A stretch of 64,000 nucleotides of DNA from Haliotis cracherodii (Eukaryota): contig NW_027266271.1 in assembly GCF_022045235.1 (NCBI RefSeq), positions 25,792,001 through 25,856,000 on the forward strand, written 5' to 3'. The notes under the pieces were generated by a model. That model was not told where the DNA came from. It saw only the letters and a program-made list of their open reading frames with translations, and made no database searches. Each line of letters starts with the position of its first letter. Position 1 is the first letter of the stretch. The position numbers were made by a program, and so were the translations under genes. Shown here piece after piece: positions 6,640 through 64,000 of the stretch.

Positions 6640-8148
6640 ATTGTCTGGTCCCGATTCAGTCATTTACAGACCACCATCATATACCTGGAATACTGCTGAG
6701 TGCAGCGTTAAACAACACACAAACAATCACGGGATTGTCTGGTCCAGATTCAGTCATTTACAGACCACCATCATATATCTGGAATACTGCTGAGTGCAGC
6801 GTTAAACAACACACAAACAATCACTGGATTGTCTGGTCCCGATTCAGTCATTTACAGACCACCATCATATACCTGGAATACTGCTGAGTGCAGCGTTAAA
6901 CAACACACAAACAATCACTGGATTGTCTGGTCCAGATTCAGTCATTTACAGACCACCATCATATACCTGGAATACTGCTGAGTGCAGCGTTAAACAACAC
7001 ACAAACAATCACTGGATTGTCTGGTCCCGATTCAGTCATTTACAGACCACCATCATGTACCTGGAATACTGCTGAGTGCAGCGTTAAACAACACACAAAC
7101 AATCACTGGATTGTCTGGTCCCGATTCAGTCATTTACAGACCACCATCATATATCTGGAATACTGCTGAGAGCAGCGTTAAACAACACACAAACAATCAC
7201 GGGATTGTCTGGTCCAGATTCAGTCATTTACAGACCACCATCATATACCTGGAATACTGCTGAGTGCAGCGTTAAACAACACACAAACAATCACTGGATT
7301 GTCTGGTCCCGATTCAGTCATTTACAGACCACCATCATGTACCTGGAATACTGCTGAGTGCAGCGTTAAACAACACACAAACAATCACTGGATTGTCTGG
7401 TCCCGATTCAGTCATTTACAGACCACCATCATGTACCTGGAATACTGCTGAGTGCAGCGTTAAACAACACACAAACAATCACGGGATTGTCTGGTCCAGA
7501 TTCAGTCATTTACAGACCACCATCATGTACCTGGAATACTGCTGAGTGCAGCGTTAAACAACACACAAACAATCACTGGATTGTCTGGTCCAGATTCAGT
7601 CATTTACAGACCACCATCATATACCTGGAATACTGCTGAGTGCAGCGTTAAACAACACACAAACAATCACTGGATTGTCTGGTCCCGATTCAGTCATTTA
7701 CAGACCACCATCATGTACCTGGAATACTGCTGAGTGCAGCGTTAAACAACACACAAACAATCACTGGATTGTCTGGTCCCGATTCAGTCATTTACAGACC
7801 ACCATCATATATCTGGAATACTGCTGAGAGCAGCGTTAAACAACACACAAACAATCACTGGATTGTCTGGTCCAGATTCAGTCATTTACAGACCACCATC
7901 ATATACCTGGAATACTGATGAGTGCAGCGTTAAACAACACAAACAATCACTGGATTGTCTGGTCCCGATTCAGTCATTTACAGACCACCATCATATACCT
8001 GGAATACTGCAGAGAGCAGCGTTAAACAACACACAAACAAACAATCACTGGATTGTCTGGTCCAGATTCAGTCATTTACAGACCACCATCATATATACCT
8101 GGAATACTGCTGAGAGCAGCATTAAACAACACACAAACAAACAATCAC
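6640..8148 (+). repeat. 94-bp satellite made from the 3' tail of SINE family A, about 16 copies
   Basis: tcactggattgtctggtc(c/a)gattcagtcatttacagaccaccatcatatacctggaatactgctgagtgcagcgttaaacaacacacaaacaa recurs at 6821, 6915 and 7009; matches the SINE tail at 33035-33125. Confidence 0.93.
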
Positions 8149-10260: not shown

Positions 10261-10479
10261 CCTATATGAAGTGAAAAAGTTTGATTGAAGATGTGTTTGG
10301 GTATTCGTCAATCATCATGAACATTTAAACTGTATATATTCACCTTTATTTTCTATATTCTATTCTCATGGTTACACACAAGAAGAAATTGTGGTGAAAT
10401 TACACTTCCTTTCTTCATAGAATTCTTCATATTCTCAATAATTCCCCAATGCACTTTATCATGGGTTAGAATAGGTCCC

Positions 10480-10740
10480 AGCTGTGAAGATCCAGGTTAG
10501 AATTGGTCTTCAGCAGCCCAATCTTGCCGTAAAAGTCAACTATGCTAATCGTATGAGGCGACTAATGGGATCGGGAGGTCAGGCTCGCTGACTTGGTTGA
10601 TGCATGTCATTGTATCCCAAATGCGTGGATAGATGCTCATAATGTCAACCACCGGATTGTCTGGTCCAGACTGGATTATCTACAGCCTGCCGTCATATAG
10701 CTGGAGTTTTGCGGAGTGTGGTGGCAAACAACAAACAAAT
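10480..10740 (+). mobile_element. SINE family A, full length (followed by a degenerate partial copy to about 10890)
   Basis: gctgtgaagatccaggttagaattggtcttcagc head; ggattgtctggtccagac...tatagctgg tail; (caaa)n end. Confidence 0.85.
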
Positions 10741-11986: not shown

Positions 11987-12254
11987 TGGTTGGTTGGTTT
12001 GTTGTTTAACGCCGCACTCAGCAATATTCCAGCTATATGACGACGGTCTGTAAATAATCGAGTCTGGACCAGACAATCCAGTGATTGATATCATGAGCAT
12101 CAATCCACACAATTAGGATTGATGACATGTATCAACCAAGTCAGTGAGCCTGACCACCCGATCCCGTTAGTCGCCTTTTACGACAAGCACAGTCACCTTT
12201 TACGGTAAGCATGGGTTGCTGAAGACCTATTCTACCCTGGAATCTTCACGGGTC
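11987..12254 (-). mobile_element. SINE family A, full length
   Basis: 5' end GACCCGTGAAGA at 12254; (ccaa)n tail; degenerate 16-bp TSD 11971-11986 / 12255-12270 differing only by transitions. Confidence 0.9.
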
Positions 12255-12714
12255 GTAATGTCGTTAACGTTGAAGAGTATGTTGTTTATACCGATGTCAC
12301 ACAGATTGGATGCTTTCAAGAATCTTGAAAAATGGCTAACTATTAAAAACAATGGTAAGTGCAAGATTGAAGGCGACAGAAACACTACCCAAAACTCATG
12401 CCTGACCGCAACAAGTGGTTTAGCCCAGGCCCATGCCATCCATGACATGTAACAGTCAATGTGGGTAGATGGGATTCACTCCAGATGCAACTGACCTGCA
12501 CTCTTCATAGGTATAAAGGTGACTTTTTTTAATACTTTTATCTCTAATCATCTGCATGATCCCTCACTAGTGATGCTCAGTGCTTTACTTTCAGGGTGGG
12601 AAATACATGCCCACTACAATGTCCAGTCATTAATGGTGTTTAGCTTCAGTCAATCAGTTGGGTCTTGCTCTTAATATTCCTGCAACAATGTCGTGATAGA
12701 CACCTGGAATTTGA

Positions 12715-15645: not shown

Positions 15646-17288
15646 TTCTCTTCAACAGTCCCACCTTTCCTGCACGTTGCCTGCCACCGGTACTCCAGCA
15701 CACAGACGACCCCCACATCTGACTGGAAGGTGAAGCTGTGGAATATCTCCCACTGACATATTCTTCGTCTTCCATCATAGATTATTGCAGCTGGCATTAC
15801 CCAATCCCAATTGCTCTGATAACACCATGCTTGGGATATCTCCCACAAAGGCCAGCCACTTAACAATATCCTTTTCTGTTGTCTTAGCTGCCACGGAAAT
15901 GTCAGGTGATGCATGGGTTATCTCCCCTTGGACATAGTTTGATTCCATTCTCCTCATGAGAATGTTCGTCACGCATTTTCCTCTTCACTCTTATCGAGTG
16001 GTAGATAAAAGGATATTACACCACTGATAATCATAGATCGCACATTTCCAGCTTAATACTGCAGTACCCTCCTATTATTCATTACTCTGCTGTATTCTCA
16101 TTGGTGGATTCCCCTGGGGTCAAGCCTGGCCAATTAGAGCCCTACATCATTAGTTATGGTATTGGCAGATGGTTACTGATGAGTCAATTGTAGAAACTAA
16201 GTCAATCCGATATTCAACTGTAATTGGTTCTGACTTGACCGCCTTTTCCTCTGTGAGTAACCCCAATCTGGTTGGAGGTTTTAATTCCCAATATCATTCT
16301 GAAACTTCATGAGATGTGAGACATATGGGTGTCAGCCAGTCTATTTAGAGTGTCAACTTATGTATTCTAAAATTCAGAATATTTTTAGGTCATTGTTGAG
16401 TAAATATAAGAGGTTGTTGTGCTCTCCACTGAGCTACGTTTTAAATTAAAAAAATCCATTTTAAACTTCTGAAGAGGAACACAGGGGAAATCACTTACTA
16501 GGGCTTGAAATTAATGTTTTTTTCAATGGCCTCCTTGAATTTTACTAGTCTCAGACTGGCAGACCTATCGTATTGACCATACTAAGCACCCTGCTCCACT
16601 AAGCAGCCAGTAGACCAATCTGTAAGTAATCTTAAGCACCCCTTCATAAATTGAAAATTTACATAACAGTCCAAATTATCTTGTGTAGTTTGCAGATTTA
16701 CAGAAAACAGAAGTGTAGAAGGGAACCCCACCGCCCCCACATATAGGTGAAGTATGCTCTGGAGATTGTAATAATTCCTTTGATACCAACACCCAGACTC
16801 ATGATACCTCCACAGACTCAGGCTTGTTATTGCACCATCATTACAACATGGTTCACTTAACACAAACAATAAATTGCACTTGTTCATAACTCAGACCAAG
16901 ACTGAATAACAAACCACTTTACTTGTTGTTTGTTTGTTTGTTTGTTTATTGATGGTTAACGCCACACTCAACAATATTCCAGCAATATGACGGCGGTCTG
17001 TCAGTGGTCAAGTCCGGCCCATCAAACCAGTGATTGACATCATGAGCCTCAATCCATGCAATTGGGATACGATGATATGCATACCCTATTTGTGTACATA
17101 CAAAAACAGGTAAACGGTACGGACAAGGTGTGGCATTGGGGACAGGTTGCTGAGGACAACTCTTAACCCTCAACGCCCACAGGATATTTGTTGAGTTGGT
17201 TTTAAACCCAAAGTTACCCTACTGCTCACTTCTGGTGGAGGGACAAGAAGACTAAGCTTACCATGGGGAGACAAACCCAGCTAAACAG

Positions 17289-17522
17289 TTGGTTGGTTGG
17301 TTTGTTGTTTAACGCCGCACTCAGCAATAATCGAGCAATGTAAATAATCGAGTCTGGACCAGACAATCCAGTGATTGATATTATGAGCATCGATCCACGC
17401 AATTGGGATCGATGACCAAGTCAGCGAGCCTGATCACCCGAACCCGTTAGTCGCCTTTTATGACAAGCATAGTTGCCTTTTACGGCAAGCATGGGTTGCT
17501 GAAGACCTATTCTACCCCAGAT
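17289..17522 (-). mobile_element. SINE family A, slightly 5'-truncated
   Basis: Perfect TSD ccagctaaacag at 17277-17288 and 17523-17534. Confidence 0.88.
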
Positions 17523-17652
17523 CCAGCTAAACAGACTACCAATGAACCGTTTTCATTCACCCAAGGTGAGGTAAGAAATTTGTCACTGACACCAGTTTGT
17601 ATAACTGTCTTGAAACTATAATCTAAAACAATTGTAGCTTCATTGACATTTA

Positions 17653-21616: not shown

Positions 21617-21795
21617 AGTGAGTGAGTGAGTGAGTGAGTGAGTGAGTATGGTTTTACGCCACTTTCAGCAATATTCCAGCAATATCACAGCAGGGGACAC
21701 CAGAAATGGGCTTCACACATTGTACCCGTTGGGAATCGAACCCGAGTCTTCGGCGTGAAGAGCGAACGCTTTAACCGCTAGGCTACCCGACGGTC
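21617..21795 (-). mobile_element. tRNA-headed SINE, family B
   Basis: Minus strand: gtagcctagcggttaaagcg (A box), gggttcgattccc (B box), tail gatattgctggaatattgctgaaagtggcgtaaaacc + (actc)n. Confidence 0.9.
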
Positions 21796-23425: not shown

Positions 23426-23652
23426 TGGTTGGTTGGTTGGTTTGTTGTTTAACGCCGCACTCAGCAATATTCCAACTATATGACGGCGGTCTGTAAATAA
23501 TCAAGTCTGGACCAGACTATCCAGTGATTAATATCATGAGCATCAATCCACGCAATTGGGATCGATGACATGCATCAACCAAGTCAGCGTCACCTTTTAC
23601 GGCAAGTATGGGTTGCTGAAGACCTATTTTACCCCAGAATCTTCACGGGGCT
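23426..23652 (-). mobile_element. SINE family A, intact 5' end, internal deletion
   Basis: Perfect 11-bp TSD actgacgaagt at 23415-23425 and 23653-23663. Confidence 0.9.
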
Positions 23653-24804: not shown

Positions 24805-25072
24805 TGGTTGGTTGGTTTGTTGTTTAACGCCGCACTCAGCAATATTCCAGCTATATGACGGCGGTCTGTAAATAATCCAGTCTGGACCAGACAATCCAGT
24901 GATTAATATCATGAGCATCGATCCACACAATTGGGATTGATGACATGCATCAACCAAGTCAGCGAGCCTGACCACCCGATCCCGTTAGTCGCCTCTTACA
25001 ACAAGCACAGTCACCTTTTACGGCAAGCATGGGTTGCTGAAGACCTATTCTACCCCAGAATCTTCACAGGTC
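24805..25072 (-). mobile_element. SINE family A, full length
   Basis: 5' end GACCTGTGAAGA; TSD cagc(g/a)tacatgt at 24793-24804 and 25073-25084; adjoins a degenerate family D SINE (about 24630-24790). Confidence 0.92.
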
Positions 25073-25589
25073 CAGCATACATGTGAGCAATTCATTTTGC
25101 TGTCTTGATTCTTACTCTGTTGAACATAAATTATTTTTTCGGATACGAGCATCAACACAAAACACGACATGTTATCCTGCTCCTTCACATCCGGCAGCCC
25201 CTAAAAACATAAGGTGGACCTTGTTCTTACATGTGAGGAAGGGGGTGTTTACTTGTGTGGCATATTATTTAGAGAGCCTGAATGTCTATTTACATTTGAA
25301 ACCTTCCACATAAACTACACACAATATTATCTCTTTCATATTGGCAATATTTTGATGCCTCTACAAGTTTCAATTGATAAGTTTAAGAAATATGATTCTC
25401 AAAATAAACACTTCCATGTATACAATTTTCTTTTATGTTAACATTACCTTCCAGTTACTCACATAATACAGGTCCTACAGTGTTTGCATGTACTAATTGG
25501 CCTGTAAAGATTCGGTAAAATCATTAACATCGTGTTTAAACATTTACAGAAATGACTGCAACTACACACAATTGTAAACTTTAACACAT

Positions 25590-32868: not shown

Positions 32869-33134
32869 ACCCGTGAAGATCCGGGGTAGAATAGGTCTTC
32901 AGCAACCCATACTTGCCGTAAAAGGCAACTATGCTTGTCGTAAAAGGCGACTAACGGGATCAGGATCAGGCTCGCTAACTTGGTTGATGAATGTCATCGA
33001 TCCCAATTGCGTGGATCGATGCTCATGATATTAATCACTGGATTGTCTGGTCCAGACTCGATTATTTACAGACCGCCATCATATAGCTGGAATATTGCTG
33101 AGTGCGGCGTAAAACAGCAAACCAACCAAACCAA
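32869..33134 (+). mobile_element. SINE family A, full length (reference copy)
   Basis: acccgtgaagatccggggtagaataggtcttcagcaaccc head, duplicated hairpin module, tail ...gctggaatattgctgagtgcggcgtaaaac + (aacc)n; attaccc at both ends. Confidence 0.92.
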
Positions 33135-51094: not shown

Positions 51095-51238
51095 TTCTGG
51101 ACAGTGATGCAGGAAGTCACACCTACTACTATGGATGACCATTTCTCAAATAGTTCGAAAGAGTTTGACTTTTGTTCTATTGTTTGTGGTGAGAAGAACA
51201 TGGCTGTAAAGTCCTATATCCACCACCTGTGCCAAATT

Positions 51239-51487
51239 ACCTGTGAAGATCCGGCGTAGAATAGGTCTTCAGCAACCATGCTTGCCGTAAAAGGCGACTA
51301 ACTGGATCGGGTGGTCATGTTCGCTGCCTTGATTGATGCATGTCATCATATCCCAATTGCTTAGATCGATGCTTTTGATGTCAATCAGTGGATTGTCTGG
51401 TCCAGACTCGATTATTTACAGACATCTGTCATATTGCTTGAGTGTTGCTGAGTGAGGCATTAAACAACAAACAAACAAACAAACAAA
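51239..51487 (+). mobile_element. SINE family A, full length, single-hairpin subfamily
   Basis: acctgtgaagatccggcgtagaataggtcttcagc head; (aaac)n tail; degenerate TSD acctgtg(c/t)ca(a/g)at. Confidence 0.88.
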
Positions 51488-62832: not shown

Positions 62833-63057
62833 GTTTGTCTGACGTTTAACGCGACACTCAAAAATATTCCAGCTACATAATATACGGCAGTCTGTACACA
62901 ATCCAGTGATTAATGTCATGAGCATCGATCCAAGCAATTGGGATCGATGACATGCATCAACCAAGTCAGTGAGTCTGACCACCCGATCCCGTTAGTCACC
63001 TATTACGGCAAGCATGGGTTGCTGAAGACCTATTCTACCCCAGAATCTTCACGGGTC
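62833..63057 (-). mobile_element. SINE family A in the HP1 intron, single-hairpin subfamily
   Basis: 5' end GACCCGTGAAGATTCTGGGGTAGAATAGGTCTTCAG at 63057. Confidence 0.88.
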
Positions 63058-64000
63058 ATTTATTTATTGAATAACAGACCAATCTTAGTCTACATGATGT
63101 CTTCATACATTATTAGAGAAAAAGTAAGTTTGACAAATTCAGCGCAGATGCATACTTAACTCTTTCAACACCGTAGGCCAGCAGACTGGCCAAGCCATAG
63201 TCACATCAAAATAGTATATAATTTTTTAAACCTACCTGTCATATCATTCATTTATTAAATCTATCACATTTCACAATGTCTGAAATATGTATTCCATTTA
63301 AACATTATTCAGTATCTCCCGCGATGTTATTGAAAATACAATTCTCGGACACACTTTGACAATGGGTCCACAATGAACATGTCAAAGAGCAAAATAAAGA
63401 CGTTTCAAGCAAATGTTTCCATTTATTATACAAAGTAATAATAAAAAACAGAAACAAATATATATCTAACAGATGTCAAGCTTACATCTAAGTTATTATT
63501 TCCATCTTTTTGTGCGATCGGGTGTAATGTAAATCAAATGAGATCTTGGCTTTCGCCGCCTTGAATTCACAGCTCGGACATGTTTAACTCTTTCAACACC
63601 AGTCAACCAGTAGAGTTTACTGCTGGGACACCGAGTTCCCAGAGACTCTTGTGTCATAGATGAAGCCAACATTTATCAAAGAAAATATCTGCTTGTAAAA
63701 TATCTTTGCTACTACATGTTATACACCATTTGAAAGGTCTGATCCTAGTGAAAGTTATGTTTTTCACATTGTTTAAAATAATGCATTTACAACTTAATTA
63801 AGTTCGTTGTAAATTAAAAATTGTAAGCTAACACGTTAACGTCCAGATTAAGGACCAAGGAAGCGAAAACCTGCTGATTTTCGGCAAATATAAGATTCCA
63901 TAAAATCCACTTACCTATTTAAGTTTTATTTTCATTGTTTATGTAATTGGAAAATCATTTAAAAAGAGTTATAAATAGTATCTGCTCACCACCCATTTCC

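Follow-up and report, generated by a model that had tools for sequence, protein, structure and literature searches.

The SINE at positions 32869 to 33134 of the window (the whole 64-kb stretch of DNA that was analysed) begins with a head of about 70 nt whose sequence folds into an RNA structure conserved across hosts. This conservation is strongly supported, and the real support for it is covariation between families. Covariation and occurrence in viruses identify as a conserved RNA fold a SINE head that had earlier been taken for a promoter. The family type itself is known, and judged by its sequence the SINE belongs with the LP-SINEs published by Matetovici 2016 (PMC4758252). New to the literature searched are the conserved RNA fold, its viral occurrence and, in a LINE of the same genome, its tandem arrangement with an HDV-like unit. 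We propose that the head is a candidate xrRNA-like block to 5'-to-3' exoribonucleases, which would trim read-through transcripts to unit-length SINE RNA, and we rate the chance of this as somewhat below even.

The SINE and its structured head

The focal copy shows the following features:

32869..33134, + strand: full LP-SINE-type copy, with structured LINE-derived head, body, LINE-like tail and (AAAC/AACC)n end
32869..32886, + strand: stem P1, CCCG 32870-73 / CGGG 32882-85, with one more pair possible, A32869-T32886
32875..32900, + strand: pseudoknot stem S2, 7 bp, GAAGATC 32875-81 / GGTCTTC 32894-900
32906..32958, + strand: closing stem P3, CCC 32906-08 / GGG 32956-58, short in the focal copy and weakly supported across families
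32913..32954, + strand: core hairpin, near-invariant, two tandem 22-nt units (32913-28 and 32935-50)
33073..33116, + strand: 3' tail stem-loop, common to the 3' end of an I-group LINE bearing the same head motif

P1 encloses U32874 (loop 1) and the 5' strand of S2, and S2 spans the linker TAGAATA (32887-93), of which the AGAAUW part (32888-93) is conserved. The second 22-nt hairpin unit is intact, with the core CGTAARAGGCGACTAA at 32939-54; CTAA occupies 32951-54 and CGGGATC starts at 32955. The general order of the motif is P1, one U, the 7-bp S2, a linker ending in AGAAUW, a C-N-G exit, an optional P3 and the near-invariant hairpin core. A check against the sequence confirmed the positions that the preliminary description had given for P1, S2, the linker and CTAA. 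The stem CCCG/CGGG that it reported is present at the focal copy, but P1 is imperfect in several copies. Similarly, the layout of hairpin, CTAA and GGG is found as described, but the 22-nt unit is duplicated at 32869 and CTAA-GGG is deleted at 23652.

There are 11 head matches within the window. Copies other than the focal one are:

10478..10575, + strand: head of an older copy, with part of another head in front of it
12155..12255, - strand: head of a copy with imperfect TSD
17280..17523, - strand: 5'-truncated copy, beginning within S2, with TSD
23572..23652, - strand: head of a TSD-flanked copy, CTAA-GGG deleted internally
24973..25073, - strand: head of a TSD-flanked copy
51237..51313, + strand: head of another copy, single hairpin unit
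62980..63058, - strand: head of another copy, single hairpin unit

Genome-wide, 11,440 exact matches to 31-33 nt of the head were obtained (control, 0). The SINE measures about 245-267 nt here, and its copies have variable TSDs and a microsatellite end; no clear TSD was seen at the focal copy 32869. Two of the three TSDs described previously, at 23652 and 25072, are visible, whereas the one at 12254 has one mismatch and 5 extra nt. Seven copies indeed begin alike, and TGAAGA and TCTTCA are present in all seven, but their shared 5' end is not as fixed as had been stated. It varies by 1-3 nt, with less variation in young copies, and the SINE starts 1-3 nt ahead of P1. Among 68 body-selected copies, 46 were full-length, and these have G, A and C at the first three positions in 24, 36 and 43 cases; young copies, chosen by an exact head match, have them in 23, 27 and 27 of 30. 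The base upstream of the head is random in the 46 full-length copies. A B box, judged by its consensus, is absent in 7/7 copies and no Rfam family of any kind lies over the head at E<=1, in line with the earlier view of a head that is not derived from a tRNA. Mobilization by a LINE is likewise supported, by the TSDs and by the tail stem-loop, which resembles an I-group LINE 3' end.

LP-SINEs have been described from abalone, oyster and periwinkle, with a head of about 70 nt that matches the 5' ends of Nimb-17_LMi, I-3_DR and RTE-9_CPB (PMC4758252). The present SINE is alike in having a head of about 70 nt that comes from a LINE 5' end and not from a tRNA, in its TSDs and in its size near 255 bp. 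Its head resembles the first ~70 nt of Nimb-17-type LINE 5' UTRs, and the same motif occurs in the 5' UTR of an I-group LINE of this genome. By eye, landmarks and core match the scallop copies with 'Nimb-17 homology', which share the C-run, the AGAAT linker and the core CGTAAGAGGCGACTAA. A tRNA or 5S head and Pol III boxes were not found (B box, Rfam, random upstream base), and the variable TSDs and the microsatellite end agree as well. Hdi_LP and Hmi_LP have a consensus of 255 bp, the comparison with these two being one of description and length only. The head was proposed there to be a promoter, and the case of L1Tc, with a promoter plus ribozyme, was mentioned. The accessible part of that paper gives no RNA fold, viral occurrence or partner LINE; what differs here is the covarying fold, the viral copies and a LINE that combines the motif with an upstream HDV unit and a matching tail.

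Conservation of the fold

The search pattern was a 16-nt core, which matched 11 viral, at least 122 metagenome and 69 prokaryote-collection stretches. A strict descriptor was passed by 6/11 viral matches, 27/123 metagenome matches (among the matches listed) and 3/69 prokaryote-collection matches; truncation or decay affects many of the repeat copies in the metagenomes. For the covariation analysis, representatives were chosen by hand among loci of full-length appearance, which biases the set toward intact copies. In a sequence-only alignment of 24 diverse copies, all seven pairs of S2 have compensatory changes, with changes on both sides, and 83.7% of the cells are paired. The P1 columns are 84.7% paired, slid controls in the same alignment reach only 38-57%, and none of 500 shuffles was as good as the whole structure. 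A pairing-blind parse that used landmarks only (30 copies picked, 3 of them without landmark, leaving 27 types, with misparses retained) gave 144 of 189 positions paired versus 105 +/- 5.7, and 0 of 100,000 shuffles came that high. For P3 the pairing is 60%, with 245 of 3000 shuffles as good and one row misparsed.

The AGAAUW linker and the core are conserved in sequence, and the letters of P1 and S2 change with the pairing kept. The invariance of the core hairpin is to be expected, because the core was the search pattern. Two pairing registers of this hairpin score alike, and single-sequence folding gave z values from -3.05 to +0.46, which are not decisive. Three different S2 stems exist in this genome (in the SINE, in an older SINE and in the LINE), and all of them pair; the scallop copies in Fig. 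S2 of PMC4758252 have a fourth S2, which is different yet complementary by eye. The covariation across families thus bears out the H-type pseudoknot of the preliminary description as real and conserved. The invariance in seven copies that it had put forward carries little weight by itself, because 117 of 5000 single-head shuffles hold a pseudoknot of equal size and because decay within the family, at 2-9%, is equal in the stems and beside them.

An Rfam 15 scan of the window and 10 homolog loci returned nothing on the motif, and in phage records the motif was not matched. Occurrence in bacteria was considered and rejected. About ten prokaryote-collection matches resemble the motif by eye, and they are taken as eukaryotic DNA because SINE/LINE-like bodies or microsatellites follow the motif. 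The bins with such motif-bearing SINE/LINE-like DNA, probably contamination, are L245, L278, L273, L275, L252, L233, L249 and L255. In another host (L109, L155, L164, L185), the motif is fused directly ahead of a tRNA-like head, like in the scallop MESC SINEs.

Occurrence in viruses

The fold is present in 7 of the 11 viral matches, which correspond to six distinct records. Five of these encode RNA-virus genes (RdRp or capsid domains). All five have the motif on the coding strand, at 6, 11, ~24, 74 and 101 nt past the last ORF, and its distance to the contig end is 89-185 nt; the tombus-like and toti-like records carry it in the 3' UTR. In one RNA-virus record a second motif with another S2 follows in tandem, 106 nt downstream. 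The sixth record is a 212-kb DNA virus, in which the motif is intergenic, about 190 nt ahead of a 1056-aa ORF. As the motif follows the last ORF in RNA viruses and lies between genes in the DNA virus, it most likely works as RNA. Relaxed viral scans added no new true instance; among the 238 candidate sites listed there were six descriptor matches, three of them re-finds and three unconvincing. The record with two tandem motifs also contains a 1217-aa ORF without Pfam match (L283:255-3905, - strand), downstream of an S-domain capsid ORF.

A LINE with the motif behind an HDV-like unit

The LINE that carries the motif was found only by a pattern leaving out the stem of the SINE. It is about 6 kb long and has two ORFs, with a zinc-knuckle-like ORF1 and with APE, RT and RNase H domains. 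On the basis of the APE-RT-RNase H architecture and of Matetovici 2016 (PMC4758252), it would belong to the I group as a 'Nimb-like' element. Its 3' stem-loop aligns with the tail of the SINE. The LINE ends in (TCAC)n and not in (AAAC)n as the SINE does, and the true mobilizer of the SINE may therefore be a sister subfamily.

A 57-nt HDV-like unit immediately precedes the motif, and the element starts with the first G of this unit. A descriptor for a nested double pseudoknot with a G-U first pair and a CxA joiner is passed by 23 of 30 LINE copies, and the unit aligns over positions 1-74 of RF02682 with 23-27.5 bits (E 0.1-1), below the gathering score of 44. From this modelling the unit appears to be a canonical HDV-like ribozyme fold, and its cleavage is predicted. 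The 30 copies are the first 30 genome positions matching the motif, upstream sequence not being a criterion. The full unit is kept in 29 of them and rearranged in one, and none starts at the motif. Genome-wide, the last 7 nt of the unit are retained at 561 of 599 exact LINE heads, about as point decay predicts. G stands at +1 in 28 of the 30 copies, preceded by a random base at -1, and the TSDs abut this first G in all five copies with a located 3' end.

That the unit is kept while the motif is intact argues against self-cleavage or a promoter start at the first base of the motif. A motif that cuts at its own 5' edge should strip off the HDV-like unit, and LINE copies without the unit are not common. 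Self-cleavage of the SINE at its first nucleotide, as suggested in the preliminary description, is disfavoured by this result.

An HDV remnant ahead of the SINE heads was also sought and discarded, with just 13 loose matches genome-wide at varied spacing. Upstream of the motif in 23 viral and other-host homologs, the descriptor gave three loose matches and no convincing HDV fold. An RNase H search for the partner LINE led to 20 loci of another I-group family that does not have the motif at its 5' end. In some loci (L119, L141, L204, L255) the motif is followed by a short UTR and what we take, by its sequence pattern, to be the start of an APE-endonuclease-like ORF, with no HDV fold upstream; these LINEs may begin at the motif.

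The LINE with the HDV-like start is abundant (L622-L627, L658-L687, e.g. G000:C11:14782900-14792700), and many copies cluster at C2:20.9-21.75 Mb. Its first ~315 nt are 87-93% alike across subfamilies, the ORFs merely ~67-80%. A second young I-group LINE family (L061-L063, L065, L066), with an ORF2 of 1260-1266 aa, is without the motif at its start. It has an antisense SINE 3' fragment fixed in its 5' UTR, at ~2100-2350 in element orientation, which sits between two duplicated start units.

A candidate exoribonuclease roadblock

Judged from sequence, the motif is most likely xrRNA-like and probably not a ribozyme that cuts at the first base. The proposed pathway starts from a SINE without tRNA head that begins 1-3 nt before P1 and keeps P1 and the 7-bp S2 as their letters change, along with the sequence of the AGAAUW linker and the core. 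SINE copies in introns or UTRs would be transcribed within host Pol II RNAs, and during decay of these XRN1 or XRN2 would halt at the fold, leaving a stable RNA that starts just before P1. As the tail stem-loop matches the 3' end of the I-group LINE, a protein of the LINE lineage would copy this RNA by target-primed reverse transcription, which would give the TSDs. In the LINE, the upstream HDV-like ribozyme would make a 5'-OH end, and the motif would act as a second line of protection. XRN enzymes are not known to degrade RNA with a 5'-OH end, and the HDV unit would survive in the LINE for this reason. In SINEs, and in LINEs without ribozyme, the roadblock would set the 5' end of RNA freed from read-through transcripts. 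LINE copies lacking the unit are expected if the motif cuts, or starts transcription, at its own edge, but not if it is a roadblock behind a 5'-OH end.

More broadly, and with slightly less confidence still, we suggest an unclassified xrRNA class that moves among RNA viruses, a DNA virus, LINEs and SINEs, that sets the 5' ends of promoter-less, tRNA-less SINEs by blocking decay, and that forms, together with the HDV-like ribozyme stacked ahead of it in the mollusc LINE, a two-stage device for the 5' end. Viral xrRNAs (flavivirus classes, dianthovirus/luteovirus, coremin) likewise are compact pseudoknots after the last stop, in tandem or before an ORF, with defined RNA ends adjoining the fold (PMC8374639, PMC6299227). 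Placements in the 3' UTR, in tandem and ahead of an ORF are all known for them, so that the viral placements of the motif, in five RNA-virus records and one DNA-virus record, count in favour of a roadblock. The pseudoknot-dependent compact fold, as seen by covariation, agrees with this comparison too. The SINE head differs from viral xrRNAs in combining an H-type knot with a separate conserved hairpin and in its place in cellular retroelements, its resistance being predicted. No described xrRNA class was matched in Rfam 15, and the topology differs from the classes in the accessible part of PMC8374639. Characterized xrRNAs wrap a ring of ~15 nt around the 5' strand and halt XRN1 without a protein; the SINE head would have to do the same. 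Xrn1 passes plain H-type frameshift pseudoknots without stalling (PMC10321173), and resistance would therefore need the 3' core to close a ring.

The start positions speak on both sides. A ragged SINE start (G in 24/46) next to a sharp, HDV-made LINE start (G in 28/30) is in favour of a roadblock, but the contrast is smaller in young SINE copies (G in 23/30). Also, none of the 30 LINE copies is trimmed to the motif, which means that the LINE gives no direct sign of halting. Copying of a cap leaves a partial 5' G, and the partial G of the SINE thus also fits a capped Pol II start. If XRN1 is blocked, the motif would be a case of an xrRNA encoded in cellular genomes; according to a 2021 review (PMC8374639), such cases were still to be found. 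It would then also open a third route to SINE RNA besides Pol III heads and ribozymes.

Alternative roles

A rather unlikely alternative is a cap substitute or translation element. The motif would bind initiation factors or ribosomes, like a 3' CITE or an IRES, so that uncapped LINE and viral RNAs are translated and the SINE RNA is parked near nascent LINE protein, as the Alu head does. This would suit its position directly behind an HDV unit whose product is capless, its position ahead of an ORF in the DNA virus, and a near-invariant core that suggests a binding surface. Tombusviridae, moreover, use 3' CITEs (PMC6299227), and the tombus-like and toti-like records have the motif in their 3' UTR. 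However, SINEs are non-coding, and such a role alone leaves unexplained why the SINEs and the other LINEs start 1-3 nt before P1.

We consider a new class of self-cleaving ribozyme, cutting at or just before the first nucleotide as proposed in the preliminary description, to be unlikely. If the motif does cleave, it would be a new ribozyme class. It lies at a LINE 5' terminus, where HDV-like and twister ribozymes are known (PMC5786205, PMC8501958), and it resembles small ribozymes in its compact, sequence-conserved core and covarying stems. Ribozymes also occur in the UTRs of linear RNA viruses, including toti- and tombus-like ones and sometimes as tandem pairs, mostly reported in 5' UTRs (PMC13725137), and viral presence therefore does not exclude cleavage. 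One objection is the survival of the HDV unit (29/30 and 561/599 LINE copies, motif intact). A cut in the LINE could be blocked, though, as the base ahead of P1 is paired there within the HDV P2 stem. In viruses, cleavage in the 3' UTR would take off the last 89-185 nt of the genome, and the ragged start in the body-selected SINE sample is unfavourable as well.

HDV-like ribozymes stand at the 5' ends of LINEs (R2, RTE, Ingi/L1Tc; PMC5786205), and the upstream 57-nt unit of the LINE fits their fold. The SINE head, in contrast, is without a nested double pseudoknot (no P3/L3, no P1.1, P2 not interleaved). In none of 7 copies does the HDV descriptor, whose positive control passes, place the start of a fold at the SINE 5' end; its matches are in the body, loose and inconsistent. 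An HDV reading of the hairpin plus CTAA, the analogy drawn earlier, was rejected, as only 14-15 nt are available where P3, L3 and P1' need ~21. For hammerhead, twister, pistol and hatchet there is no Rfam match, and the core words of these classes are absent except for one pistol-like linker word in 1/7 copies. The earlier failure to fit the head to a known ribozyme class is in agreement with these results. Twister variants at Perere-3 RTE 5' ends (PMC8501958) are also structured RNAs tied to the 5' end of a non-LTR element, but they are cut inside the motif and the flank rebuilds P1, whereas the SINE motif needs no flank and lacks a twister core. Neither Rfam 15 nor the openly accessible papers searched contained the fold, its viral occurrence or the tandem of HDV unit and motif; the main text of a 2026 preprint on ~150 new ribozyme classes does not contain 'mollus', 'pseudoknot' or the core word.

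Even less probable, in our opinion, is an internal promoter at the DNA level, with Pol II transcription starting at the motif's 5' edge and the fold being secondary (Matetovici 2016, PMC4758252). In favour of this, the motif lies 5'-terminally and takes the place of tRNA heads in some SINEs, a cap could be the source of the partial 5' G, and Pr77 of L1Tc is both a promoter and a ribozyme (PMC3383444). Nevertheless, the stem letters are free to vary provided that pairing is kept, the motif is present in RNA viruses without a DNA phase, and LINE copies beginning at the motif number 0/30. The evidence supports the earlier idea of a structured RNA in place of a Pol III head.

Very improbable is another RNA role, such as a protein-binding or packaging signal that serves the polymerase of a retroelement or virus, or a protector protein of the host, with binding setting the 5' boundary: core and linker are invariant across very different replicons, but reverse transcriptases, three RdRp groups and a DNA virus are unlikely to share one signal if it is not bound by a host factor.

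Small-RNA reads and neighbouring repeats

Three small-RNA runs with the same species label contributed 9, 115 and 12 reads, without a pile-up of starts at the head. They are uninformative on SINE starts, because such libraries do not contain 250-nt RNA. The reads peak antisense to the SINE body, at 33038-33068 of the window, with one dominant start (63/78 in run X21).

A weak tRNA match (27 bits) at 21728-21786 of the window (- strand) is probably the head of a tRNA-derived SINE; the SINE of this kind in L015 and L588 has the same tail type. The 3' part of the SINE has given rise to a 94-bp tandem array of ~16 units at 6640-8141 of the window. Tandem arrays of 50-52-nt head units or of the 22-nt hairpin unit are found at L007:1167-1596, L619-L621 and L077:8138-8679.
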